A stretch of DNA of 32,000 nt from an uncultured bacterium (GTDB lineage Bacteria > Margulisbacteria > WOR-1 > CAVSGV01): contig OY969425.1 in NCBI GenBank assembly GCA_963699255.1, positions 450,001 to 482,000 of the forward strand, in the 5' to 3' direction. Below the pieces are notes generated by a model. That model made no database searches and was not told where the DNA came from. It saw only the letters and a program-made list of their open reading frames with translations. This document shows positions 2,168 to 26,500 of this stretch, piece by piece (position 1 is the first letter of the stretch; every line of letters starts with the position of its first letter). Made by a program: the position numbers and the translations under genes.

Positions 2168-3217
2168 TCAGTATCCAAGTTCCTTAATTACGGCGGAGAC
2201 TTTACACGGGATCTCTGTGGGCTTGGCTCCCTGTTTGACCGCGTTATCGGGATCCTTAAGGCCGTGTCCGGTAAGAACGCATACTACGACAGAGCCGTCA
2301 GGAATTATCCGTTTTTTGGCAAGTTTCATCATTCCGGCTATCGATGCGGCGGACGCCGGTTCGCAGAAGACCCCCTCTAATTTCGCGACCAGCCTGTATG
2401 CTTCCAGTATTTCATCATCTGTGACGATCGATATAGAACCTGCTGATTCTTCCGCCGCAGCAACGGCTGTTTTCCAGCTCGCCGGGTTTCCTATCCTTAT
2501 GGCGGTCGCAACAGTTTCCGGTTTTTCTATCGGATGCCCCATTACTATGGGAGCCGCGCCTTCAGCCTGAAAACCCACCATCTTCGGCAGCTTTGATATT
2601 TTTTTCTTGTCATAATATTCCTTGAATCCTTTCCAGTAAGCGGTGATATTTCCCGCATTGCCGACAGGGATCGCAAGGAAATCAGGGACGGATTCAAGCT
2701 GCTCGCAGACCTCGAATGCCGCTGTTTTTTGGCCCTCTATCCTGAAAGGATTAATAGAGTTCACGATCTCGATGGGATATTTTTCGCCGAGTTCTCTGAC
2801 AAGGTTCAGGGCTTCATCGAAATTCCCCTGGACTGCAAAGACCTTTGCTCCGTGCATCATCGCCTGGGCAAGTTTTCCAAGGGCTATTTTCCCGCTGGGG
2901 ATTATCACTATGCAGTCGAGCCCGGCTCTTCCTGAATAAGCAGCCGCCGATGCAGAGGTATTGCCTGTTGAGGCGCAGATGACGGCTTTGAACTTCTTTT
3001 CAACCGCTTTGCTTATTGCCATTGTCATGCCGCGGTCCTTGAACGAACCGGTGGGGTTCAGTCCCTCATATTTCAGATACACTTTGCATTTCGTGAGCTT
3101 ACTGAGTTTTTCAGCGTATATCAGCGGCGTATTGCCTTCGTTCAGCGTAACAACGGGGGTTTTGTCGGTAACCGGCAGATATTCTCTGTATTTATCTATT
3201 AAACCTTTCCATCTCAT
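2168..3217 (-). CDS. thrC: threonine synthase
   Basis: PLP-lysine motif SFKDRGMT, plus [15 protein letters not shown] and the overall fold pattern. I moved the start from the track's 3292 to ATG 3217 ([16 protein letters not shown]...). The 25 extra upstream codons overlie a promoter-like TTGCCC-17nt-TGgTATCAT. Confidence 0.88.
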
Positions 3218-3224
3218 TTTTCCA

Positions 3225-3253
3225 ATGATACCACCTGAAAATGAGAGGGGCAA
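3225..3253 (-). promoter_or_regulatory. candidate extended -10 promoter of thrC; leaderless geometry
   Basis: Read on the minus strand: TTGCCC (3253-3248), a 17-nt spacer ending in TGg, TATCAT (3230-3225), then 7 nt to ATG 3217. Confidence 0.45.
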
Positions 3254-3363
3254 GAGGGAAAGTTCGTATGTAATCCTGAAATTTCCGACCAAAATTGGCG
3301 ATATATAGTACAGAGGGGAATTATATAGTTACATTCCAATACTGCGGAAAAGGAGCCATTTGC

Positions 3364-4497
3364 GTGTCAGCAAGTATGATCGAAAGGTTTCAAAGCCCTA
3401 AAACAGCTTTCAAAAAAACATTGAAAAGCGTACGAATGGAATTCAAGGAAACGGCGCAGGCGACAAAATATGTGCTGACAAAAACATTCTACCCTAACTC
3501 AATATTGCCTGAAATAAAACAGCCGAGCCTAAGAACTGCGATAAATGAATTGGCCCGTCAACTTTCATCTAATATTTCCACGGGTGAAAAGATCCTGTTT
3601 TTTGGGGGAAGGGTCTTCAGGGAAAATGGCGAAATTATCGCTAGCGATCCGCTATTAAAGATCGGCAAGGATATGGGCGGCATGACGGTCAGGACTCCGC
3701 TTACGACAGAACGGGGAATGCGAACATTTTTAAAGGATATCTATCTGAAACCCGAAAGATGGGGGATCAGGATATCTGACGAATTCAATGAAGAAGCTAG
3801 ATCAGAGATACATTCTCAAATAATGTTGATGAACGCCATCTTGGATATTGAACCAGACAATAGCATGGCGTTATCAGTTGTTCCCAACGATCACAAGTAT
3901 CATTCTTTGGGCATTATATCGCTAAACATTTTCTGTAGCGTTTATTTTTTATATGCTTATTTGAAAGGGGGGGCTCACGCATCTCTTTTTAAGCATCTCT
4001 CACTAATAAACTTCGCATCTGGTCTGCTTATGTTATGCGCACATATTCTAGCTTCAAGTAAAGGGGTCGGCACATATCACAAAAATCAAATTAAATGTAA
4101 TTTTTCACAAGAAGCTGCCGATTCCAAAGTCCCTACACATGAATACGTTCACTTCTTAAAGGATATAGGTATATTAAAAAACGAGATAACTGCCAGTTCA
4201 TATGAATCTCTTATGCAGGTGAGAACTTATGGAAAAGTATTTGGAAAAACCGAGGCGTATGAAAAAGGATTATTAATGGACGCTAGAACGCTCCTTGCGG
4301 AAAAATTGCATTTCAAGGTTGAAAAAGAAAAAACATACAAGATCGGCACAAGACTGGCCGGGTTGGCTGTGCAATTATCAACAAAGCTTAACGATCCTAA
4401 AGCCAAGTGGGATTTTTTGAACATTGTCTCTTGTTCCGATAAGGATGAACTTTTCCCCAATCTCTTTAATAGCAAGTTCAAACAATTTTTCGAGTAA
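3364..4497 (+). CDS. hypothetical membrane protein (ORFan; two central TM helices)
   Basis: Long open frame. AAGGAG (3349-3354) lies 9 nt upstream of GTG 3364; the alternative start is ATG 3376. Central hydrophobic segments are LGIISLNIFCSVYFLYAYL and LINFASGLLMLCAHILASS. I recognise no family motif. Confidence 0.55.
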   Translation: MSASMIERFQSPKTAFKKTLKSVRMEFKETAQATKYVLTKTFYPNSILPEIKQPSLRTAINELARQLSSNISTGEKILFFGGRVFRENGEIIASDPLLKIGKDMGGMTVRTPLTTERGMRTFLKDIYLKPERWGIRISDEFNEEARSEIHSQIMLMNAILDIEPDNSMALSVVPNDHKYHSLGIISLNIFCSVYFLYAYLKGGAHASLFKHLSLINFASGLLMLCAHILASSKGVGTYHKNQIKCNFSQEAADSKVPTHEYVHFLKDIGILKNEITASSYESLMQVRTYGKVFGKTEAYEKGLLMDARTLLAEKLHFKVEKEKTYKIGTRLAGLAVQLSTKLNDPKAKWDFLNIVSCSDKDELFPNLFNSKFKQFFE

Positions 4498-4511: not shown

Positions 4512-4546
4512 TCTCGTCTCACGTCTCGCACCTCACATCTCATTAT
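4512..4546 (+). repeat. 5 x 7-nt degenerate tandem array TCNCRTC (reverse complement GAGAYGN)
   Basis: Units: TCTCGTC TCACGTC TCGCACC TCACATC TCATTAT. It starts 15 nt after the ORFan stop and abuts the hisS -10 box. Confidence 0.75.
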
Positions 4547-4554
4547 GCTATAAT
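4546..4554 (+). promoter_or_regulatory. candidate extended -10 (TGcTATAAT) of hisS; leaderless geometry
   Basis: TG at 4546-4547 and TATAAT at 4549-4554, then 8 nt to ATG 4563. There is no Shine-Dalgarno sequence and no room for a leader. Confidence 0.45.
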
Positions 4555-4562
4555 CCCCGCGT

Positions 4563-5813
4563 ATGAAATACACAAGACAAAGAGGCACCCGTGATATCCT
4601 GCCGGGCGAAATAAAGACCTGGCAGTTCCTGGAAGAAAAGGTCCGGGCTGTTTTTGAGAACTACAATTACGCGGAAATAAGGACCCCCATATTCGAGCAG
4701 ACGGAAGTATTCACCCGCAGCATCGGCGAGGATACCGATATCGTCGGGAAAGAAATGTACACCTTCACCGACAAAGGCGAGCGTTCCATCACTCTCAGGC
4801 CGGAAGAAACAGCCCCTGTCGTAAGGGCCGCAATAGAGAATAATCTGCTGGGCAAGAACGATGTCGTAAAACTTTATTATTTGGGACCGATGTTCAGGTA
4901 TGAGAGGCCGCAAGCGGGAAGATTCAGGCAGTTCCATCAGGCCGGCGTTGAAGTTTTCGGATCTTCGGATCCACTTATAGATGTTGAAGTGATAGAACTG
5001 GGTCTCAGGTATTTCATGGAGATCGGCTTAAAAGAGCTTGAGGTCAATGTTAACAGCGTAGGATGCAATACCTGCAGGCCGAAATACAAAGAAGAACTGA
5101 TCAAATATTTCAAGGGAAGCTCCGCTGACATGTGCGATACATGCCGCGGCCGCCTGGACAGGAACCCTTTAAGGGTGCTTGATTGCAAAGATGCGAAGTG
5201 CCAGAAGCTGATAGATCATGCCCCTTCATCGACCGATTTCCTGTGTGAAGAATGCGGGACGCATTTTGACAAAGTTATTTATAACCTGGACCGGTTCAAG
5301 ATCCCGTATAAGCACAACAAACGCCTTGTAAGAGGGCTGGATTACTACACAAAGACCACATTTGAGATCATTTCAGGGTCGCTTGGGGCCCAGAACGCCG
5401 TCTGCGGAGGCGGCAGATACGATACTCTTGTCCAGGAACTTGGCGGCAAGGAAACGCCGGCTATAGGGTTTGCCATCGGCCTTGACAGGCTTGTTCTTGC
5501 GCTGGAAGAACAGAAGATCAACGTTTCCAAAGGCCTCAGGCTGCAGGCTTATGTCGTCACATTGGGAGATGCCGCCAGGCAAAAGGGTTTTGAAGTCTTA
5601 AGGAACCTCAGGAACATGGGGATAAGGTCTGATATGGACTATCAAAGCAGGAGTCTGAACTCACAATTAAGAACAGCTGATACACTAAAGGCGCAATATG
5701 CCATAATAATAGGGGATGATGAGCTTAAAAACGAGATCGCGCTGATACGATCTATGGACGATAAAACGCAGGAAACGGCTAAATTTGACGATATATTAAG
5801 GAGATTTAAATGA
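4563..5813 (+). CDS. hisS: histidine--tRNA ligase
   Basis: 416 aa. N-terminus is [16 protein letters not shown]. Class II motifs include [16 protein letters not shown] and [10 protein letters not shown]. The anticodon-binding C-terminus is present. Confidence 0.95.
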
Positions 5814-7606
5814 AACGGACACATAGTTGCGGAGAGCTGAGAAAGAAAGATGTTAACAAAGAGGTTGTACTGGCCGGATGGGTGCACAGAAGGCGCGACC
5901 ATGGGGGGCTGATCTTCATAGACCTTCGAGACAGGTCGGGTTTATGCCAGGTGACGATTAATGTGACGAACAAGGATCTGCATCAAATAGGGGAACAATT
6001 GAGGTCTGAATTCGTCACCATGGTAAAAGGGACCGTTGTGGAACGCTCAAAAGAGACCGTGAACTCAAAACTTCCGACCGGTGACATAGAGGTCATCGCT
6101 TCCCATATGGAAATATTGAACAAAGCCAAGACCCCGCCGTTCGAGATAGCCGATCCTAGCCAGGAGATCGACGAAAATGTCAGGATGAAATACAGATATC
6201 TCGACCTTCGCAAGGATGAAATGAGGGAAAATCTGGTATTCCGCCACAAGATCATTAAGTCTTCAAGGGACTTCCTTGATAAAGAAGGCTTCCTTGAGAT
6301 AGAAACGCCGTTTTTGACCAAATCCACCCCTGAAGGGGCCAGGGATTACCTTGTGCCGTCAAGGGTGAATCCGGGCAAATTCTACGCTCTTCCACAGTCG
6401 CCTCAGCTTTTCAAGCAGATCCTGATGGTTGCTGGCATGGAAAAATATTTCCAGGTCGTCAGATGCTTCCGGGATGAGGACCTTAGGGCGGACAGGCAGC
6501 CGGAATTCACCCAGATAGACATGGAAATGAGCTTCATCGAGCGCGATGACGTTATAGAGGTCATTGAGCGGATGATGGTCCACATAATGAAGCAGGTCAA
6601 AGAGGATGAGGAAAAGTATTTTATCCATAAAAAGATACCGGATTTCAAGCTTCCTATACCAAGATTGACCTGGGACGAAGCAATGTCGAGATACGGAACG
6701 GACAAACCGGATACGCGGTTCGGGCTTGAGCTGGTGGACGTTACCGATATCGCAAAGGGGTCGGAATTCAAGGTGTTTTCTTCGACGGCGAATGCAGGAG
6801 GGCTTGTTAAAGGGCTTAACGGAAAGGGCTGCGCGAAATTCTCCAGGAACGAGCTCGACAACCTTGAGGCTGAAGCGAAAAAACTCGGAGCAAAAGGATT
6901 GGCATACATCGTGATCGCGGCGGACGGCATCAAATCGCCGATAGCCAAATTCCTGAAGAAAGAAGAGATAGATGCGATCGTAAGCAGGCTCAAAGGGGAA
7001 ACAGGGGATATCCTTTTCTTTGTTGCCGACAAGCCGGATACCGCTAACTCCGTTCTGGGACAGATAAGGCTTGAACTGGGAAAGAAGCTGAATTTGATCG
7101 ACAAGGCAAAATTCAATTATGTCTGGGTGACCGATTTCCCGCTTATGGAATACAGCGAGAATGACAAGCGATGGGTTTCCAGGCATCATCCGTTCACAGC
7201 GCCGCAGGGCAGCTGGGATGACATAGAAGAAAGGTTCGTGAAAGATCCGGCATCTATAAAAGCGCAAGCGTATGATTTTGTCCTTAACGGCGTCGAGATA
7301 GGCGGCGGGTCAATAAGGATCCACAGGCCTGACATCCAGGCCAAGATATTCAAGATCTTGAGGATGACGGAAGAAGAGGCCAATCTGAGATTCGGATTCC
7401 TGCTGGAAGCGTTCGAATACGGCGCTCCTCCGCACGGCGGGATAGCTTTGGGTCTGGACAGGCTTGTCATGATGCTTGCCGGGATGGATTCAATAAGGGA
7501 CGTTATCGCATTTCCGAAGAACCAATCAGCTGTATGCCCCATGACGAACGCGCCTGATGCTGTGGATCCAAGACAGCTGAAGGATGTTCACATAAAACTG
7601 GCTTAA
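5810..7606 (+). CDS. aspS: aspartate--tRNA ligase (bacterial type)
   Basis: 598 aa. OB-fold N-terminus ([22 protein letters not shown]), plus [34 protein letters not shown] and [11 protein letters not shown]. The ATG overlaps the hisS stop (ATGA at 5810-5813), and AAGGAG lies upstream. Confidence 0.95.
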
Positions 7607-8628
7607 AGCTTGTTGATCTCGCGGATAAGACCGGTAAATTTTCCATAACTATTCCTGTCAAATTTCAGGCTGAGCCTGAAAAGGTCCAGTTTATCATCGG
7701 TCTTTATTTCTTCTTTTACCGGTTTGCAGCATTCGATCTTCCCTGACAGCAGTATGTCCTTGTACTTCTTGTTGAGCTTTTCGATCTGATGCGCGGAAAG
7801 TTCCTTGTTCAATCTTATGATAGTGGTGTCCCCGACATATCTGAGAGAGTTATAGACCTTATAGAAATCCGTGATCTCATTTACAGCGTCGCGGACGGTA
7901 TTGACGACCCTGAATAAATTTAGGTCATCCTTGTACAGGAGGTTCTTCTTCATCATCGCGTCCTTGACGAATCTAAGCCAGCTCTTCCAGTATGAGCCGA
8001 ACAGGGTGTCAACAAAAACAAGAGGGCGGGGAGATGTCTTTCCCGTCTGCAGAAGGGTCAGCACTTCAAAAGCTTCATCGTGTGTGCCGAAACCGCCTGG
8101 AAAAAGTACCGTCGCATCCGATTCCTTGATGAAAACCAGTTTTCTGTTGAAGAAATATTTAAGTGTAACAAGCTTCTCGCCCCTTATGTATGGATTAGGT
8201 ACCTGCTCGGTCGGGAGCTTGATGTTTACGGCAAAACTCTTGCCCGGCCTTGCTCCTTTGTTCCCGGCTTCCATGATGCCGCCGCCGCCGCCGGTTATTA
8301 CCATCCATCCCATTTCAGAGACCTGTTTCGCGAAACTCTCCGCCATTTTATATTCAGAGGACTTGGCGCTTATTTTGTGTGACCCGAAGATGACGACCTT
8401 TCGGATGCTGCGGTAAGGGGAGAAGACCTTGAACGCATATCTCAGCTCTTTCAGGGTCGAATTAAGGATCTTGATGTCCCCGACATCCCTCAGGTCGCCG
8501 GAAAGCTTGCAGATCGTAGTGAACATCTGGCGGTAGAACTCTGTGGTTTCGCTGTTCCCGTATTTTCTTGCCAATTCATCGATCACTTTGTCGTCATTAA
8601 TATTGCCCAGACAGTACTTCTTTTCCAT
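7603..8628 (-). CDS. LOG-family (TIGR00730-like) protein with N- and C-terminal extensions; possible nucleotide 5'-monophosphate nucleosidase (PpnN-like)
   Basis: Motifs [24 protein letters not shown] and [12 protein letters not shown] (LOG PGGxGTxxE). The track start at 8646 is a TTG. I prefer ATG 8628 (MEKKYCLGN...) because TTGACC-17nt-TATGAT sits 6 nt upstream of it. Confidence 0.78.
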
Positions 8629-8634
8629 GGCGGT

Positions 8635-8663
8635 ATCATATATCAAAAAGAAATAAAGGTCAA
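8635..8663 (-). promoter_or_regulatory. sigma70-like promoter of the LOG-family gene; predicts a leaderless mRNA
   Basis: Read on the minus strand: TTGACC (8663-8658), a 17-nt spacer, TATGAT (8640-8635), then 6 nt to ATG 8628. Confidence 0.55.
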
Positions 8664-8679
8664 AACAGGAAAAACACTT

Positions 8680-8714
8680 GAGATGAGAGACGGGAGATGT
8701 GAGATGAGAAGTGA
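8680..8714 (+). repeat. 5 x 7-nt degenerate tandem array GAGAYGN (inverted partner of 4512-4546)
   Basis: Units: GAGATGA GAGACGG GAGATGT GAGATGA GAAGTGA. Positions 8679-8709 match the reverse complement of 4512-4542 at 25/31, ungapped. Confidence 0.75.
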
Positions 8715-9829
8715 AATTCTTGGGAAATATCGCCGATAAACAAGCGGATATAGGCGAACATATTATTGATATTGAGAGGAAGATTATATTGGCATTATTT
8801 AAGATGTATGGCAGGACTTTTGTTTCCGGAAAAATGCTGGCAGGCGCAATGATACAGGCTCACGCGGCCACGCCCGGAAAGGTAAAAGAAAAACAGGCTG
8901 CCGGGATATCGTTATTGAGCAAATATCTGGCAGACACCAGGCTGCGAATGAATGCATGGAATAAATTATCCGCTCTGTCGCCTGAAAAAGTGATCGCGCG
9001 CGCGAGTTTAAGCGAAAAGTGGATGGAAACCGCGGGAGAGCTCATTGAAAAGACCACGAACGTTTTGGTCCGCAGAGCTCTGATGAGCAAGATAATAGAT
9101 GCATACCCCAAAAAGCAGTTCGTTTTCAAGGAAGCTGAATTGATGACCCTGTTGCCGAAGATCAATCATGAGATGGTGGAAATCCCCGCGGGAACATTCA
9201 AAATGGGAAGCCTGTGCTACGGCAACGAACATCCCGTAAGGCAGGTATCGCTTTCAGGTTTTTTGGTGGGAAAATATCCAGTGACCAACGCGCAGTACGG
9301 GATATTCATGGATCAAACAGGGTATAAAGAACCGCTTTTTTGGAACAATCCGGAATTCGGAAAGGGGAAGCCCAACAATCCTGTGGTTGGAGTTGACAAA
9401 AATGACTGTGAAGCATATGTGAGATGGCTGGCAATGCAGCTTCCAACGGAAGCGCAGTGGGAATACGCTGCCAGAGGCCCAAAGGGATTTGAATACCCGT
9501 GGGGGAATACATGGGATCCTTCAAAGATAACTCCTGACAAAATGTATGGGACTCATCCGGTAGATGCCCATCCTGAAGGGGCCAGCCCTTTTGGTGTCGT
9601 AGATATGGTAGGCAATATTTGGCAGTATACATCCGACAGGTATGGTAAGTATGAGCCTATGAACCTGAAAGACCCAAAAGGTTCTTTGGACGGCTACAAT
9701 ATAGTTCTACGCGGCTGCGCTTGGTATATTGATGTTCCTGTTTATATGCGCGGAGCATTCCGGTTCTTCAATAATGCCGAGACCCGCGACAACGGCACCG
9801 GTTTCCGCACCACGGAAAGCATAAGGTAG
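8711..9829 (+). CDS. FGE-sulfatase (SUMF1/EgtB/PvdO-type, C-type-lectin fold) domain protein with an unknown ~150-aa helical N-terminal region
   Basis: The C-terminal 220 aa carry MVEIPAGTFKMGS, HPVRQVSLSGFLVGKYPVTNAQY, EAQWEYAARG, YPWGN, GNIWQYTSD, VLRGCAW and GFR. The start is uncertain. GTG 8711 lies inside a heptamer array, and TTG 8789 (preceded by GAGAGGAAG) or ATG 8804 are alternatives. Confidence 0.78.
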   Translation: MKFLGNIADKQADIGEHIIDIERKIILALFKMYGRTFVSGKMLAGAMIQAHAATPGKVKEKQAAGISLLSKYLADTRLRMNAWNKLSALSPEKVIARASLSEKWMETAGELIEKTTNVLVRRALMSKIIDAYPKKQFVFKEAELMTLLPKINHEMVEIPAGTFKMGSLCYGNEHPVRQVSLSGFLVGKYPVTNAQYGIFMDQTGYKEPLFWNNPEFGKGKPNNPVVGVDKNDCEAYVRWLAMQLPTEAQWEYAARGPKGFEYPWGNTWDPSKITPDKMYGTHPVDAHPEGASPFGVVDMVGNIWQYTSDRYGKYEPMNLKDPKGSLDGYNIVLRGCAWYIDVPVYMRGAFRFFNNAETRDNGTGFRTTESIR

Positions 9830-9953: not shown

Positions 9954-12287
9954 GTGAGCACCGCGGAACCGCTAATAACTAACAGAGCGTTGATAAGACA
10001 AGCCCTTTCCCTTAACAGGACGGAATACAAAAAATTCAAAACACAGCATATAAATGATCCTGTGATGAACAAGGAACACCAAATATGGAACATTAGCTCG
10101 AACGCCGCCAAATTCCTTTATGATGCCTTTGGTAACCATAAAGCAGTTGTAGCCGCATTGCTGATGCCCGTTGAAAGAAATAAGATCAAGGAAATCGACC
10201 AATCCCTGTATTCCATCATAACAGCATATGACAAGATGATGGATTTCACCGTCCCGACCAAACCTGACGCGTCTATTATAAATAATCACTACAAAATGCT
10301 TATTGCTGATCCGTTACTGAGAGGAAAGTTTTCCGGAGAAGACCTTTTAAGCGCCCATTTTTTGATGTTCGGCATGATGCAAAGCACCCTAAAAAAAGGG
10401 ATACCGGTGATCGAGCTCTTTTACAGGGATCCGCTCATACTGTCGCAAATGGCGCTTTCCACGGCAAAGCTTTTGAACCGGTTTCAAAAAGATCTCGAAG
10501 CTTGCCAGTTGAAAGACGCGGCACTTAACATAATCAACCCCGACTTATACAAATTTGCGGAAGAACATGGTTACAATGATATACCGGAGTTCGTTTTGCT
10601 GAAAAAAAAGGATGAATTGCTGGCCGAACTAAGTAATAAATGCACGGAAGTATTTCAATATCAGGAGGGTTTCAGTTTCGAGGTTAAAGGAAGGCTGAAA
10701 GCGCGCCAGAGCATAGTGGACAAAATGGAAAAGAAAAAAGGTAAAAAGGTCCTTGATATTCTGGGCCTCAAAGTGATCGTTCATTGCCCGCATGGTCCAA
10801 GCCAGATCAGGGCACTTGAGGAAGCGCTAAAGGCGGCTAAAATAGATGAACAAAAAAGTGAAATAAAAAGACTCTATAAGGAAAGCTCTGATCAGCTTTA
10901 TTATCTAAGATCAGCAATATACTCTTACGCTCAAAAGAATGGTTGGATAATAAATAAAAAAGAATCTGATAATTATGTGGCGAAACACAAGGAAAACGGA
11001 TATCAGGCATTGCACGATAATTATCAGATCAAAATAGGGAATAATGCCATCACGGTCGAGATCCAGCTTCTCACGGATCAGATGTACCACTATAACAACA
11101 CGATAGCAAGCCACGATGAATACAAGGGAGGAGAGGGGCTAAAAGGGGATTATGCGCCAAATGAGACAAATAAGATGTTTGACGAGATCCAAAACGACCT
11201 CTCACCTAATGTTTACGCGTTCGTCAAAGAAGAAAATGACATATCCGGGCCATATGAGTTATGCCCGAAAGAAAATTCCTATGGGATGCCGCTTGACTTG
11301 CTTTCCCACATTAATTCTTACGACTCGCAGCGTTTTTATATATATCAGCAGGGCAGGGAATCACTCATAAAAAGTGATGACAGGGTCAGGAATGGATCTG
11401 TTATAGGGGGTAAGGGAAAAGCCAATCCAGGAATGGGAAGGATCGAAAAACTTTACGGTACGGAGACCGGAAAGAACGCGGCTCGATTTAATTTGGACAG
11501 CAAAGCCTTGAAGGAAAGTGAAATCCTGGCCATGGAAAGGAACGGAAAAACTTTCCTTGACAATTTGATCAGCAATGGGAGCAACGGCCGGGAAAACGGA
11601 ACAAATGGCGGATCAAACGTTGTTTTCCTTGAAAATCATTTTCTTGACGAATTAAAATATAATGATATTGTCACCGCTTATTTTTATATTGGCAAAAATG
11701 AGACTTTTCGCGAGAAACTAAAAAATGAAAAAAACAAATATCTGCTAAATTATACGTTTGATGCTGAAAAGGGGAAGATCACTTTTAGCGGGCATAACGA
11801 CTCGCTCTTTGTAAGGGCCATCATGAGGTATTTAGCCGACACGAACCGCAGCATGAGATCCGTGCGCCAGTCCCCTGACGGGGATAAGATGATCTTCACC
11901 GCCGAATTGGACAACTTCTCAAAAGAGGACCTTATGAAATTGACGGAGTATCTGAAAAAAACAGGCAACGTCAGAAAGCTATATAATAACCTGCCCGCAA
12001 AAACCGTCATTGATAAGAAGCTGAAGATCACGTTCAAAAGCGATGAACCGGGAATGATCTACAAGGTATATTTGTTATTATGCAAGAATAGTTGTTATAT
12101 ATCCTCGTTCGAATCCGGCGAAACGGCGCCGGGAACCAGCGCCTCGGCTGATTTTATGGTAAAGTTCCCCGGTAAATTCAACGATGAAAAATACAAACAG
12201 CTGCTAAATGAAATAAAGGACCTCCCTGACGCGTATGTTAAGAGGGCCAGATTAGACGTGACAAAGGGCGTTACTTTCGAAGTTTGA
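9954..12287 (+). CDS. highly divergent long RelA/SpoT homologue (degenerate HD region, RelA_SpoT synthetase-like, TGS-like and ACT-like C-terminus)
   Basis: GTG start with GAGGGG 9 nt upstream. Synthetase-like block: KGRLKARQSIVDKMEKK...VLDILGLKVIV...DNYVAKHKENGYQALH...TVEIQLLTDQMYHYNNTIASHDEYKG. HD-like remnant: AVVAALLMPVERN (canonical AALLHDvvED). TGS-like: VYAFVKEENDISGPYELCPKENSYGMPLDLLSHI...DDRVRNGSVI. ACT-like: LKITFKSDEPGMIYKVYLLL. The 777-aa length fits a long RSH. Confidence 0.7.
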   Translation: MSTAEPLITNRALIRQALSLNRTEYKKFKTQHINDPVMNKEHQIWNISSNAAKFLYDAFGNHKAVVAALLMPVERNKIKEIDQSLYSIITAYDKMMDFTVPTKPDASIINNHYKMLIADPLLRGKFSGEDLLSAHFLMFGMMQSTLKKGIPVIELFYRDPLILSQMALSTAKLLNRFQKDLEACQLKDAALNIINPDLYKFAEEHGYNDIPEFVLLKKKDELLAELSNKCTEVFQYQEGFSFEVKGRLKARQSIVDKMEKKKGKKVLDILGLKVIVHCPHGPSQIRALEEALKAAKIDEQKSEIKRLYKESSDQLYYLRSAIYSYAQKNGWIINKKESDNYVAKHKENGYQALHDNYQIKIGNNAITVEIQLLTDQMYHYNNTIASHDEYKGGEGLKGDYAPNETNKMFDEIQNDLSPNVYAFVKEENDISGPYELCPKENSYGMPLDLLSHINSYDSQRFYIYQQGRESLIKSDDRVRNGSVIGGKGKANPGMGRIEKLYGTETGKNAARFNLDSKALKESEILAMERNGKTFLDNLISNGSNGRENGTNGGSNVVFLENHFLDELKYNDIVTAYFYIGKNETFREKLKNEKNKYLLNYTFDAEKGKITFSGHNDSLFVRAIMRYLADTNRSMRSVRQSPDGDKMIFTAELDNFSKEDLMKLTEYLKKTGNVRKLYNNLPAKTVIDKKLKITFKSDEPGMIYKVYLLLCKNSCYISSFESGETAPGTSASADFMVKFPGKFNDEKYKQLLNEIKDLPDAYVKRARLDVTKGVTFEV

Positions 12288-12304: not shown

Positions 12305-13615
<1,311 letters not shown>

Positions 13616-13617
<2 letters not shown>

Positions 13618-13745
13618 GAAATTGGGGAATTAGGAAATTTGGAACAAAGTTTAGGAATACAGGAAAACGGGAAATTGGTTACCCATTTTCCATATCCCCT
13701 TTTCCCTAAACTCATTTCCTCTATTCCTGTCCTTCCATATTTCCT
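13616..13745. repeat. 130-nt imperfect palindrome with a purine-rich left arm and a pyrimidine-rich right arm (GGAAA-type ~8-nt units)
   Basis: Left arm 13616-13678 (47/63 purines), loop TTAC 13679-13682, right arm 13683-13745 (52/63 pyrimidines). The outer AGGAAAT/ATTTCCT, the loop-proximal GGAAAxTGG/CCAxTTTCC, and GTTTAGG/CCTAAAC are complementary. The interior pairs only with bulges. Confidence 0.7.
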
Positions 13746-15360: not shown

Positions 15361-15386
15361 CACAATGACACAATGAACAACAATGT
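15361..15386 (+). repeat. left inverted-repeat arm flanking the Avd-like gene (CACAATGA CACAATGA ACAACAATGT)
   Basis: It matches the reverse complement of 15833-15858 at 22/25 with one 1-nt gap. Confidence 0.7.
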
Positions 15387-15434
15387 TGCCTCGCTTACGC
15401 TCGGCGGTTAATATATAATAATGCACAATCAACT

Positions 15435-15800
15435 ATGAAATTCGACATTAGAGACAGATCTAAAAAGTTCGCTATAAGAGTAATTAAACTTATTAATAAG
15501 TTCTCAAAGGAACTGGCTTTACAGGAGATCGCGCATCAGTTGGTCAGATCTGCCTGCTCGATAGGCGCTAATCTTGAAGAGGCAGATGCTGCTTCTTCGC
15601 GAAAAGATTTCTTCCATAAAGTATCGATTTCTTATAAAGAAGCGAAAGAAACAAGATATTGGCTTGACTTGATCCTTGAAGCAGAACTGCTTAAGAACCA
15701 ATCAAATATAAAAGAGGCTGAAGCTTTGCGCAACGAAGCTATTGAATTAAGCAGGATCTTATTTACGATTTTTGAAAAGAAGGATAAAAATAATTGTTAA
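15435..15800 (+). CDS. four-helix-bundle protein (23S rRNA intervening-sequence protein / Avd-like family)
   Basis: 121 aa. Family signature LVRSACSIGANLEEA...SRKDFFHKVSISYKEAKETRYWLDLI. TATAAT (15414-15419) lies upstream. Confidence 0.85.
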   Translation: MKFDIRDRSKKFAIRVIKLINKFSKELALQEIAHQLVRSACSIGANLEEADAASSRKDFFHKVSISYKEAKETRYWLDLILEAELLKNQSNIKEAEALRNEAIELSRILFTIFEKKDKNNC

Positions 15801-15819
15801 AGAGTAATAATTTTGATGA

Positions 15820-15843
15820 TGTCGCGGAGCGACACTTTGTTGT
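15820..15843 (+). terminator. small hairpin with a T-rich tail downstream of the Avd-like gene
   Basis: TGTCGC gga GCGACA (15820-15834), followed by CTTTGTTGTT. Confidence 0.3.
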
Positions 15844-15858
15844 TAATTGTTAATTGTG
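15833..15858 (+). repeat. right inverted-repeat arm flanking the Avd-like gene
   Basis: CACTTTGTTGTTAATTGTTAATTGTG is the reverse complement of CACAATTAACAATTAACAACAAAGTG. It overlaps a possible ribF promoter: TTGTTA 15840-15845, 17 nt, TATTAA 15863-15868. Confidence 0.7.
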
Positions 15859-15872
15859 AAATTATTAATTAA

Positions 15873-16802
15873 ATGAAGATAATCAAATTTAATGAACATA
15901 TAAAAACCAGATCGATCGTTTTAGCCCTTGGCAACTTTGACGGCGTCCACGCAGGCCATCAAAAACTGATCCTTGAGGCGCTAAGATTTGCCAGAAGGAA
16001 AAAGCTTCCGTGTTTCGCGATGACTTTCGATCCGCATCCCCAGGAAGTGGTCGATCCGGGACGGGGGCTTTGTCTGCTGACCACTTTATCCGAAAGGATC
16101 GGCCTGATGCGAGGTCTGGGCGTTGACGGGGTCATGGTCAAGGAATTCAGCGAGAAGATATCAAAGCTGCCGCCTGAAAAGTTCATATATGATTTCCTGG
16201 TGAAACACCTTAAGGCCAGGAAAGTATTCATAGGCTATGATTTTGCGTTCGGCCACAAGAGGTCCGGGACCATATCCACCCTGAAGAAGCTCGGGGATAA
16301 ATACGGTTTTGCGGTCAGCGCTGTCAAGCCCGTGATGACGCACGGCCATCTCGTAAAAAGTTCCACAATACGCGACATGCTTTCCCGCGGCGACTTCAGC
16401 AAGGCGGTCAAGCTTCTGGGACATCCTTACACGATGACCGGCCTGGTCGTAAGGGGCAGGGGGAGGGGAAGGGCACTGGGGTTCCCCACGGCCAACCTTA
16501 GCATCGCACCGGACAAGCTGGTGCCCGCCCAGGGAGTATATGTGGGGCATGTCGGCAGACGCATGTGCCTTGTTAATATCGGTTCGCGGCCCACTTTCGC
16601 CGAGGAGAAGTTCGCGATAGAGGTCCACATCCCCGGCTTTCACGGCGACCTGAGGGGAAAAGTGGTCCAGGTGGACTTGTTCAAGAGACTTAGAGATGAG
16701 ATACATTTCGCGGATGTTGAAAAGCTGAAATATCAGATCAGAAAAGATATTGAAAAAGCAAAATTATTAATCCCCCGCTCGCTTCACTCGCACCCCCTTT
16801 AA
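15873..16802 (+). CDS. ribF: bifunctional riboflavin kinase / FMN adenylyltransferase
   Basis: 309 aa with LGNFDGVHAGHQ, GRGRGRALGFPTANL and EVHIPGFHGDLRGK. The last ~11 codons (LIPRSLHSHPL) are encoded by a C-rich hairpin element and look like a non-homologous tail. Confidence 0.92.
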   Translation: MKIIKFNEHIKTRSIVLALGNFDGVHAGHQKLILEALRFARRKKLPCFAMTFDPHPQEVVDPGRGLCLLTTLSERIGLMRGLGVDGVMVKEFSEKISKLPPEKFIYDFLVKHLKARKVFIGYDFAFGHKRSGTISTLKKLGDKYGFAVSAVKPVMTHGHLVKSSTIRDMLSRGDFSKAVKLLGHPYTMTGLVVRGRGRGRALGFPTANLSIAPDKLVPAQGVYVGHVGRRMCLVNIGSRPTFAEEKFAIEVHIPGFHGDLRGKVVQVDLFKRLRDEIHFADVEKLKYQIRKDIEKAKLLIPRSLHSHPL

Positions 16803-16822
16803 TAAAGGGGGAAGGGGGGATT
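16769..16822. other. two-tier C-rich/G-rich hairpin between convergent ribF and the histidine kinase
   Basis: The inner stem CCCCCTTTA (16793-16801) / TAAAGGGGG (16803-16811) contains the ribF stop codon. The outer stem is AATCCCCC (16769-16776) / GGGGGATT (16815-16822). There is no adjacent U-tract on either strand. Confidence 0.55.
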
Positions 16823-23525: not shown

Positions 23526-26500
23526 ATGGCAAAACGAATGGTATTGTTTATATTGATTATAATTTCGATTTCTATAACCTGCTTTGCTGAAACACGTACA
23601 GTCACAAATACTGCGGATTCAGGAGCAGGATCCCTTAGAAGCGCGCTAAGTGCAGCAGTTTCAGGCGATACCGTAGAATTTAATATCCCAACAACAGATC
23701 CGGGCTATACAACAGAATCAGGCGCCAGCTGGTGGAGAATAAAAAATCAAAGCTCCTCCTATTTAGGAGTAAATGGCGGTGTTTCAGTATTAGGTTCTTC
23801 ACAAACTTCTAATCAAGGGGATACTAATACTTTTGGCCCAGAAATAGAGCTTACTACAACTGCAACGAATACATGTTGGTATGGATTTTCATTCAATGCG
23901 GACCACGTTACTATCGAAGGATTTACGATCACAAACTTTCCAAGACAGGGCATATCAATTAACGGGAATTATAGCCATATATATAATAATTATATTGGCA
24001 TTTCACCAAAAGGGGACAGGGCTGATCCTAACAGGCAGGGTATTGGACTATCTTGCGCTTATAACAGAATAAATAATAATGTTATTTCAGGTAATAATTG
24101 GGATGGTATTTACATGTACGGCACATCTAGCAATGAGATTGTCGGAAATTATATCGGAGTTGATCATTTGGGAACAGCTAAAATAGGAAATGCGATTGGA
24201 ATAAATATCGATATTTGTACAGTCCCAACAATAAACAATACAATTGAGAGCAATATTATTTCTGGGAATGGTGACGGGATATGGGCTGATGGAAATCATA
24301 GCGACCTATATGTTAACAATAACGTTATTTTAAATAATTATATTGGAACGGATAAGAACGGCACCCTTGAACTTGGCAATAATAACACAGGCATTTCATT
24401 TTACCATGGGCCTAATCATAATTTAATTAAAGGGAATGTTGTTTCAGATAACGGGTCTTATGGGATACGTTTTTATGACAGAATAAATTACAATCAGATC
24501 GTTTCAAACTATATTGGCACTGACAAATTTGGAACAGGTAATTTAGGGAATAGTTATCACGGAATATATATCGGTGATCCCGGATGGATTATTAATCCTT
24601 CAAGCTATAATACCATTGGTGGATCCGGAGTAGGCAACACAATTGCTTTTAACGGCAAAGCTGCGCCGGGATGTAACGGCATATGCATAGATGGCACAAA
24701 CAATGATGCTTTCAATAAAATCTCTTCAAACTCGATTTTTTCAAACAGCGGGCTTGGTATAGCGCTTAATAACTCTGCAAATCAGAATATAAATTATCCA
24801 TCAATTGTTTCTGCCGAATATAGTGAACTCACGGATCAAACAACAGTTTGCGGGACTGCTAGCATCAATAATATTATAGAGATATTTAAGGCTGAGCCGG
24901 ATCCTTCGGGATCAGGGGAAGGAAAAGTTTTTCTTGGATCAACCACAGCTGAATCCAATGGGAGCTGGTCGATAGCGGTAAGCGGACTAACGCCCAGTGA
25001 TGAGGTCACTTCTACAGCAACCGATAACATGGGAAACACTTCGGTATTCTCTCAAAACAAGCCGGTTGTCACAGCTGTATTTACCTATCGCCCAGATCTG
25101 GCTATCGCTACTTTGGAATCGGGATCCGATTACATTGGTGAGAATATTTCCGATCCAAGCGGGGAAGGTCAAACAATGGTTCAGTATTCTTATGCTAATC
25201 AGAAGAATATATTTTATGTTTTGCTCAATAATTCGGGAGCTTTAACCGATGATTTAATTGTTACGGGAGAATCGGGAGCAAGCGGATGGGATGTAAAATA
25301 CTTTGACGGAAAATCATCTTCAACCGAAATAACCTCACAGGTCACAAGCGGCGGATGGTCATCTGGTGATTTGGCCTCCGGAGTTAGCAGAGAGATCAGG
25401 GTTGAAATTGTACCCAGTGGAAGCGGCATTTCTACTGAAGATGTCATGATCACACTCACCTCATCAAATGACACTCAAAGAAAAGACGTTGTTAAAGCGG
25501 TTTCAGTTGTGGTCAATACTGCCCCTGCCATCTCACTGATACTGCCTAACGGAGGAGAAGCTCTATCAGGCGGGAACAATTATAATATTATTTGGAGTTG
25601 TACCGATCCGAATGGTTTCACTTCTGAGCCGATCTCAATATATTATTCAACTAATGAAGGAGCAAGTTATCTTAATGTGATCACTTCCGAATACGCGAAT
25701 AGTGGAAGCTATTCCTGGTTTGTCCCCCATATAAAAGCAACTAATGTGCGGATAAAGATCGTTGCGGAAAATCTTTTAGGCAATATTGCCTCAGATGAAA
25801 GCGACGCAAGCTTTACGATTTCGCCTTGTAAACCTTATGTTAATCCAGTTACATCTCCTACGAATATAATTCATCATACTATCACAGGGACCATGTCTGC
25901 TTATACCCTTGCAGTTAAAGTTAACGGGTCAACCTCTGGGGTTGAAACATGGCTATCAAGTTGCACATGGGAATATAATGCGTCACTTTCAAGCGGCGTC
26001 AATGATTTCAGCTTTCAGGCTGTGGACATTGCTTCTAACGAGAGCGATCCGCTTAATTTGTCGATATTGCTTCAGGGTTTGAGCTTTTCCTCCCCGGGAA
26101 CAGGGACTTCTACGATGATCCCAATCGGCGCTTCTACCATAGAGCCGACAATCTCTGCGACCGTATTTGCGAGTTCCGCAAATGATTTGCCCGGGCCGCC
26201 GCCATCAGGGGTTTTACTGTTTGGCAACGCGATCGATTTCATTTCAAATGTGTCGAGTTTTTCATTGCCAATATATATCACTATGCCTCTTTCAGGCGGG
26301 GTTGCTAATCCCATCCCATATTATTGGGACAATGGAACAAGCTCATGGAAAAACAGCGGGTTGAGCGTAACAAGTAAGACCAATTCTTCAATTACTTTTA
26401 CCACTAATCATCTTTCGATTTACGCGATATTTGGCGTAACTGGATTACTTTCGGGTGTAAGGGTATACCCAAGTCCTTATAAGATAGGCGACCCTCCGAA

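Follow-up and report, generated by a model that had tools for sequence, protein, structure and literature searches.

Do two similar repeat arrays in inverted orientation, each just upstream of a promoter, mark genes that are controlled together? The question is raised by a 32,000-nucleotide stretch of DNA from an uncultured WOR-1 bacterium (here called the window, G000:C1:450001-482000). In this window, short tandem arrays of the heptamer GAGAYGN lie upstream of hisS-aspS, which encodes histidyl- and aspartyl-tRNA synthetases, and upstream of a convergent gene of the LOG/Lysine_decarbox family (hereafter LOG). The original prediction, made from the letters of the window, offered two explanations: a shared operator, UP-like or structural element that co-regulates hisS-aspS and LOG, or membership of a family of low-complexity elements. 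We analyzed the genome of this bacterium (G000; one contig, 1.77 Mb, 47.5% G+C) together with the genomes of relatives (G001, G002, and so on). The two arrays are probably solo arms that belong to a dispersed family of GAGAYGN heptamers, independent of each other and not paired, and passengers at their sites. The co-regulation explanation is not sustained. The resemblance between the arrays is that of the family consensus, and the hisS promoter is kept array-less in 16 of 16 relatives examined.

The two window arrays and the GAGAYGN family

Both arrays are built of head-to-tail 7-nt units in at least three copies. Read directly from the window, positions 4512-4546 and 8680-8714 carry exactly the letters first quoted for them, and Tandem Repeats Finder reports period 7 for each. 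Array 1 (4512-4541; genome 454515-454541; GA strand minus) consists of four units plus TC, and lies between the stop codon of an open reading frame (ORF) at 3295-4497 and the hisS -10 element. Array 2 (8680-8714; genome 458680-458713; plus strand) has five units, and its end lies 16 nt upstream of the LOG -35 element. The count of exactly five heptamers in each is thus right for array 2 and too high for array 1, whose supposed fifth unit, TCATTAT, is mostly promoter-proximal sequence (…TATGCTATAAT) that is present in array-less relatives too. The last unit of array 2, GAAGTGA, is a frequent variant in the family and contains the GTG start of the ORF at 8711-9829. No inverted partner arm was found in the flanks of either array.

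The inverted match between the two arrays is no closer than the family background. We reproduced this match: the reverse complement of 4512-4542 is identical to 8679-8709 at 25 of 31 positions, without gaps. Random in-register pairs drawn from the unit logo of the family already agree at 23.6±2.0 of 31 positions (P(>=25) = 0.34), so the match is what the family consensus gives. Eight other members match array 1 at least as well as array 2 does. For array 2, the member at genome position 1639751 is the best partner (29/31); array 1 comes 27th of 54. The original prediction had itself staked the specific pairing of the arrays on a match above background, and no such excess is found.

GAGAYGN arrays are numerous in G000. 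The genome was scanned for (GAGAYGN)x3 with at least 16 of 18 positions matching, and third-order Markov genomes served as controls. This gave 55 arrays, which merge into 46 loci, compared with 0-1 in the controls. The second explanation in the original prediction, that the arrays belong to a family of low-complexity elements, is borne out by these counts. One word is therefore repeated at loci far more numerous than chance would give, most of them in noncoding DNA. In a survey of repeat periods, period 7 was found at 45 loci compared with 0 in simulations, and the other periods from 4 to 12 at 0-3 loci; no other repeat period is in excess in G000. The 117 period-7 loci are written in many words, among them GAGATGN, GAGATYA, AATTGTT, CAAATGA, AAGAAGT, and ATTTCGG. 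GAGAYGN is one vocabulary among many, and such arrays occur as single arms and as inverted pairs that form hairpins with mismatches. Purine-rich arrays of period 8, not 7, are also present in the window (TAGGAAAT / AGGAAAAC, 13615-13674), in the spacer after the gene at 12340-13617.

The family favors gene boundaries without favoring promoters. The gene calls for this census came from a crude longest-ORF caller, and counts of internal and boundary loci are approximate. By these calls, 35 of the 46 loci are at gene boundaries, which make up 19% of the genome (P = 7e-17). The boundary loci are distributed over tandem, convergent and divergent spacers (25, 6, and 4, respectively) as expected from the spacers available (1221, 185, and 185; chi-square P = 0.59). 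Of the solo arms in tandem spacers, 10 are GA-sense and 9 are CT-sense. The placement of the family is thus non-random, yet not promoter-associated: spacers with a promoter are not preferred over others, nor is either orientation, and a genome-wide count brought out no association with promoters. Nor is the family confined to the promoters of regulated genes, as operator arrays would be, since 6 loci are in convergent spacers and 11 are inside ORFs. This distribution, with members in convergent spacers and in coding sequences, also speaks against an element that co-regulates hisS-aspS and LOG.

Some of the internal arrays are part of real genes. Five of the 11 loci inside ORFs were checked by Pfam, and all five proved to be genuine genes that carry the array in frame. 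In tsaD, a whole hairpin is read through (G000:C1:1153013-1153081, locus L157; TsaD amino acids 123-145). The others are in proS, encoding ProRS (786378-786411), thiE (5041-5067), an alpha/beta hydrolase gene (699100-699133), and dinB (1764724-1764750; all genome coordinates). Peptides encoded by in-frame arrays include RDARREMR and KRCEMRDERCEK. The loop site in tsaD is occupied differently from one relative to the next, by a GAGATNN hairpin of similar loop sequence in G002, by CCAACWT words in G003, by CCAAATC words in G001, and by a short palindromic ACGCGT-type insert in G005; in G008 there is nothing. Certain sites therefore appear to be array hotspots at which words turn over.

A further connection that had been drawn within the window was dropped. 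An 8-mer related to array 1, CTCGCACC, had been placed in the 3' element of ribF. It does occur there, at 16787-16794 and not at 16786-16793, and its count is compatible with chance (2 matches vs 0.52 expected; 7 of 100 shuffles reach 2). Nearby, at the convergent junction after ribF, a CCCCC-TTTAATAAA-GGGGG hairpin (window 16797-16815) overlaps the last codons of ribF and is probably a bidirectional terminator.

Promoters and gene order at hisS and LOG

Each array is directly upstream of a leaderless-type promoter, as the original prediction had stated. On the plus strand, hisS has an extended -10 element, TGcTATAAT, at 4546-4554 (TG at 4546-4547 and TATAAT at 4549-4554), and its ATG follows 8 nt on, at 4563; its mRNA is predicted to be leaderless or nearly so. 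On the minus strand, the LOG promoter (8635-8663) comprises TTGACC (8663-8658) and, beyond a spacer of 17 nt, TATGAT (8640-8635). This -10 element is separated by 6 nt from the LOG ATG at 8628, and the LOG mRNA is likewise predicted to be leaderless. The genes served by these promoters are hisS itself (4563-5813, plus strand; Pfam tRNA-synt_His, E = 6.5e-48), aspS (5810-7606, plus strand; Pfam tRNA-synt_2, E = 5e-128, with GAD and OB domains), the start of which overlaps the stop of hisS, and LOG (7603-8628, minus strand; Pfam PF03641, E = 2e-24), which converges with aspS.

The hisS promoter is conserved in relatives and the array is not. We examined 16 relatives of hisS: 11 from genomes, and five closer ones from metagenomes, which were found by a promoter-pattern scan and are ~71-83% identical over the aligned part of HisS. 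A genome collection was scanned once, with the closest relatives left out. Upstream of hisS, TATGCTATAATCC followed by 5-9 nt and ATG is kept in same-family relatives and in the metagenome relatives, all of them array-less, and a TGnTAtAAT-like leaderless promoter is found in most of the other class relatives examined. A heptamer array upstream of hisS was found in 0 of the 16 relatives (11 genomes and five metagenome sequences). Because the promoter is kept and the array is absent in all of these, array 1 is best read as a gain of this lineage. The conserved hisS promoter would thus work in relatives without an array, and appears not to need one. An UP element is also a poor description of the arrays, which are C/T-rich or G/A-rich and not A/T-rich, next to a promoter that is conserved without them. 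In most of the class relatives examined, the extended -10 element (TGnTATAAT) ends 5-10 nt before the hisS start (window 4546-4565; loci L002-L012 and L145-L156), so that housekeeping genes of this lineage may normally be expressed from leaderless mRNAs.

At LOG, the -10 element and the start are conserved in the family relatives examined, and in three other genera the upstream spacer is filled with other words. These are a TTTGTAA-type array in G001, inverted arrays of ATTTGTN type in G019, and, in G005, a hairpin of a GA word and a CT word that abuts the -35 element. This spacer therefore looks like a hotspot for word arrays in several genera. The GAGAYGN arrays of the window are shared with relatives at neither the hisS site nor the LOG site.

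Two further motifs were seen in these spacers. A near-palindromic ATTATATGATTATT is common to G001 and G002 (L015 and L016), ~60-80 nt upstream of LOG, and is absent from G000; it could be a candidate operator that was lost when the spacer was remodeled in G000. In the window, the motif (A)TTATATTGG(CATT) recurs in spacers at 8783-8796, 23989-24002, and 24333-24346 (repeat families D3 and D19), and may be a promoter-like element.

Gene order around the block is conserved, and the extra genes of G000 fall exactly in the two array-bearing spacers. In G002, the order is a PALP enzyme gene, hisS-aspS, LOG, and the orthologue of the window gene at 12340-13617, on the purA side. The order and relative orientation of the hisS-aspS/LOG block are the same in G001 and G002, with no inversion. 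In G002, the PALP gene directly adjoins hisS, and in G001 a different gene, of 993 amino acids, lies between them; in both, LOG adjoins the orthologue of 12340-13617. In G000, the PALP gene (2171-3292, minus strand; identified by Pfam) is separated from hisS by the ORF at 3295-4497 (plus strand, ~400 amino acids, no Pfam family), an extra gene of this lineage. Between LOG and purA, there are two more extra genes, one with an FGE-sulfatase domain (8711-9829, plus strand; Pfam PF03781) and one of 777 amino acids (9954-12287), which lies between LOG and the gene at 12340-13617. Among 12 relatives searched, the FGE gene has a single weak, domain-only match (G008, 39% identity over amino acids 153-369) and no match within the same family. 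Both arrays therefore appear to lie in recently remodeled spacers.

These features outline how solo copies might have come to lie at the two sites. Array 1 would have been gained in this lineage, in the spacer between the lineage-specific ORF and the hisS promoter, where it fills the -35/UP position; as an extended -10 promoter needs no -35 element, the array would merely occupy that space. Array 2 would have arisen in the LOG spacer hotspot, at the junction with a lineage-specific gene and upstream of a full -35/-10 promoter. Local slippage of strands or switching of templates, acting on a seeded word, may create and renew the arrays, as may the copying of other members. At both sites, they would be tolerated passengers. 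Any effect on the neighboring promoters would be incidental, through altered upstream DNA or through unstructured CU- or GA-rich RNA in the flanking transcripts.

Word conservation, hairpins and the alternatives

The GAGAYGN word is shared across genera, and this counts against our preferred reading. Within the family, pattern matches number 38 in G001, 17 in G003, 8 in G002, 4 in G004, and 0 in G005; outside the family, the word is sporadic, with 6 matches in G011. The reversed pattern, used as a control, gave 0 matches everywhere. The same word is thus found in four other genera of the family. Moreover, of 16 loci compared from G001, ~9-10 correspond to syntenic sites in G000 that also carry GAGAYGN arrays, even though the flanking noncoding DNA cannot be aligned. 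Such persistence across genera fits neutral slippage poorly, and hints at selection or at a sequence-specific maintenance process. The units themselves point the same way. In a logo of 225 units, the first six positions are strongly conserved (G 97%, A 99%, G 88%, A 90%, T 82% or C 14%, and G 92%) and the seventh is free (A 30%, C 31%, G 11%, and T 28%), although the way in which arrays were selected explains part of this pattern. A final point on this side is the geometry before promoters. A CT arm followed by a leaderless-type promoter within 70 nt is seen for 9 of the 55 arrays, compared with 5.9% of random boundary positions, a nominal enrichment (P = 0.005) that includes the two arrays that prompted the analysis and one dubious match. 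The GA side has 4 of 55, and the difference between the two sides is not significant (P = 0.27).

Members of the family occur as singles and as inverted pairs, in gene contexts that are common to related genomes. A typical pair is laid out as a stop codon, GA arm, A-rich loop, CT arm, TGnTATAAT, and leaderless ATG. G000 has 8 strict hairpin loci. Paired members fold at -22 to -41 kcal/mol, as 6-bp helices parted by 1x1 mismatches. Compensatory covariation at position 7 of the hairpins was not found, with 14 of 49 positions paired compared with ~40% by chance. As these N positions do not co-vary, it seems to be the word that is kept and not the stem.

PF05635 genes, which encode four-helix-bundle proteins of the 23S-rRNA-IVS or Avd-like type, are associated with arrays of many vocabularies. 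There are ten such genes in G000, most of them bracketed by inverted arrays, each with its own word. One (716346-716744, arms 716297-716783) has GAGAYGN arms, as do its orthologues in G001 (69% identity) and G006 (67% identity). At E <= 1e-8, no match to this gene was found in G003 and G004, which are incomplete assemblies, or in G011, which is 100% complete, and the best match in G002 is only 45% identical. All four of these genomes have GAGAYGN arrays. We therefore rejected an obligate link between the arrays and this gene, which has orthologues only in G001 and G006. Arrays 1 and 2 are themselves not the arms of a cassette like that at 716297-716783: they are 4.1 kb apart, enclose hisS, aspS, and LOG, and have no PF05635 gene between them. 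The window does contain a PF05635 gene elsewhere, at 15438-15761, between inverted arrays of another vocabulary (CACAATGA-type at 15361-15386 and TTGTTAATTG-type at 15836-15862). This cassette (15361-15870) would be an insertion, because the two neighboring genes are only 13 nt apart in G002. The likeness of PF05635 proteins to Avd raised the possibility of a reverse-transcriptase origin resembling that of diversity-generating retroelements, which was rejected as no PF00078 gene was found in G000.

REP/REPIN elements, which are associated with a RAYT transposase, and Rickettsia palindromic elements, which are inserted in frame in coding genes, are also dispersed repeats of this general kind. 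GAGAYGN arrays resemble REP/REPIN elements in being short and dispersed, in occurring as singlets and hairpin doublets at gene boundaries, in persisting for long at orthologous sites, and in flanking a small gene with inverted copies; their in-frame insertions resemble those of the Rickettsia elements. They differ in being tandem heptamers and not a fixed palindrome, and in that the flanked gene encodes a PF05635 four-helix bundle and not an HUH transposase. The only Y1 (HUH) transposase-like gene of G000 (PF01797, 1290815-1291165) has GGAACC…GGTTCC hairpins with GGAAA-word and TTTCC-word arms in its flanks (1290365-1291615), and its surroundings resemble a RAYT-like layout with a repeat of its own. 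A REP/REPIN-RAYT system was therefore rejected for GAGAYGN, as this sole Y1 gene is flanked by other repeats.

Among the functional explanations, the one that fares best is that the arrays are word-specific binding sites, forming a dispersed regulon or a set of insulators. A trans-acting protein would read GAGAYG at a 7-nt period on DNA or RNA, and arrays beside leaderless promoters, those of hisS and LOG included, would modulate transcription. Models for such reading exist: the omega repressor of plasmid pSM19035 binds contiguous 7-bp heptads, arranged as direct and inverted units upstream of promoters, and HutP or TRAP reads spaced triplets. Omega heptads are, to our knowledge, the only well-understood way in which DNA arrays of 7-bp period are read. 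Binding sites would account for six conserved positions and a free seventh, for a word common to several genera, for the many positions that are orthologous between G000 and G001, for hairpins without covariation, and for the CT-arm-to-promoter geometry. They would also suit three G001 loci (L114, L116, and L117) at which a CT arm directly precedes TGnTATAAT and a leaderless ATG. However, none of the 16 relatives examined has an array upstream of hisS, the two orientations are equally frequent, and members are found in convergent spacers and in frame inside essential genes. Dozens of other word vocabularies behave alike, and G003, G004, and G011 have arrays without a detectable GAGAYGN-armed four-helix-bundle gene. 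Finally, omega sites are limited to a handful of promoters or centromeres on plasmids and are matched by a ribbon-helix-helix protein, whereas GAGAYGN arrays occupy ~46 loci in the chromosome, many away from promoters, and have no known cognate protein. We thus consider binding sites unlikely. Slightly more doubtful still is a stricter form of this idea, in which GAGAYG plus a free seventh base is a recognition code read at a 7-nt period by a trans factor conserved across genera, the ~46 arrays are protein-bound insulators or promoter modulators, and the hisS and LOG copies are recent recruits. One of the Avd-like four-helix-bundle proteins encoded between such arrays could be the reading factor.

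We also give little credence to a role in transcript ends, in which the arrays are hairpin halves that terminate, process or insulate the upstream transcript, by RNase III cleavage or intrinsic termination, before the next promoter. The long regular stems of paired members, often found downstream of a stop codon and ahead of the following extended -10 element, are in keeping with this role, as are the T runs after some CT arms (e.g., 1134595 and 644614) and the location of PF05635 genes inside such hairpins, as in rRNA intervening sequences. Yet several hairpins have no T run, are in a divergent spacer, or are inside tsaD, and arrays 1 and 2 have no partner arm with which to form a stable local stem-loop. 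The fold z-scores of the two arrays in their four strand contexts are -0.8, 0.0, -2.2, and +0.8 relative to shuffles. Array 1 has no stable fold, and only the plus strand of array 2 folds modestly better than its shuffles (z = -2.2); its minus strand and the other contexts do not. A terminator scan found no terminator-like match at either array, and Rfam gave no family match anywhere in the window.

It is scarcely credible that the arrays are inverted ends of a mobile or invertible segment of 4.2 kb that comprises hisS-aspS and LOG. Their inverted orientation, their 25/31 complementarity and the way they bracket exactly the two converging transcription units would suit this. However, in G001 and G002 the block is in place, with its genes in unchanged order and relative orientation and no such arrays beside it, which contradicts an inversion or cassette. 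The similarity of the arrays is family background, and no recombinase or transposase gene was found within or beside the block.

Relation to known heptamer repeats

As solo copies of a dispersed family, arrays 1 and 2 have counterparts in other bacteria. By comparison with the literature, the GAGAYGN family appears to belong closely with several unexplained bacterial heptamer repeats: the short tandemly repeated repetitive (STRR) sequences of cyanobacteria, the GGGAATC repeats of Xanthomonas, and the TAACTGA repeats of Beggiatoaceae. The cyanobacterial STRR heptanucleotides were reportedly described by Mazel in 1990. Heptamers are in excess among long simple repeats, according to Mrazek 2007 as cited in PMC4692102, where the STRR heptamer repeats of cyanobacteria are cited as well. 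Xanthomonas genomes have ~186 GGGAATC repeats each, with 70-75 inverted pairs, mostly between aligned ORFs, and Nostoc has GGGGAYT heptamer repeats (Rehm et al. 2015, PMC4692102). These heptamer repeats occur as singles and inverted pairs, are intergenic, and have a conserved gene context (PMC4692102).

GAGAYGN arrays share with the STRR, Xanthomonas and Nostoc repeats the head-to-tail 7-nt units, with few copies per array and tens to hundreds of arrays per genome. In each case, the arrays are mostly intergenic, near stops and starts, and occur as singles and inverted pairs. Related genomes have arrays in the same gene contexts, with differences in array length and sequence, and function is unexplained. 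There are also differences. GAGAYGN is not G-rich and cannot form a G-quadruplex, its position 7 is fully degenerate, and its conservation spans genera with only ~70% protein identity. Furthermore, G000 holds many unrelated vocabularies in a small genome, has in-frame members in essential genes, and shows the link to PF05635.

The TAACTGA direct repeats of marine Beggiatoaceae, cyanobacteria, and Bacteroidetes (MacGregor 2015, PMC4679880) are a second parallel. In Beggiatoaceae, there are 169 sets, and a binding protein has been proposed and never found (PMC4679880). As with GAGAYGN, a specific heptamer is repeated 2-6 times and is abundant intergenically near the start codons of unrelated genes, including housekeeping genes. 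However, TAACTGA repeats are nearly all forward and just upstream of start codons, while GAGAYGN arrays have no preference for orientation or start codons and often form inverted pairs.

Our results take away the case for joint control of the LOG gene and the two aminoacyl-tRNA synthetase genes, and leave both promoters as what appear to be ordinary conserved leaderless promoters for which no array is required. Heptamer repeats of bacteria have long defied explanation, and G000 offers a good and compact instance of them: its 1.77 Mb contain over 100 period-7 arrays, and one word is kept across genera. Arrays also lie at orthologous positions, hairpins have regular one-base mismatches, some copies are read in frame within essential genes, and PF05635 genes are linked to arrays. 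Arrays 1 and 2 would add two solo members to this family, and suggest that such arrays can appear in freshly remodeled spacers.

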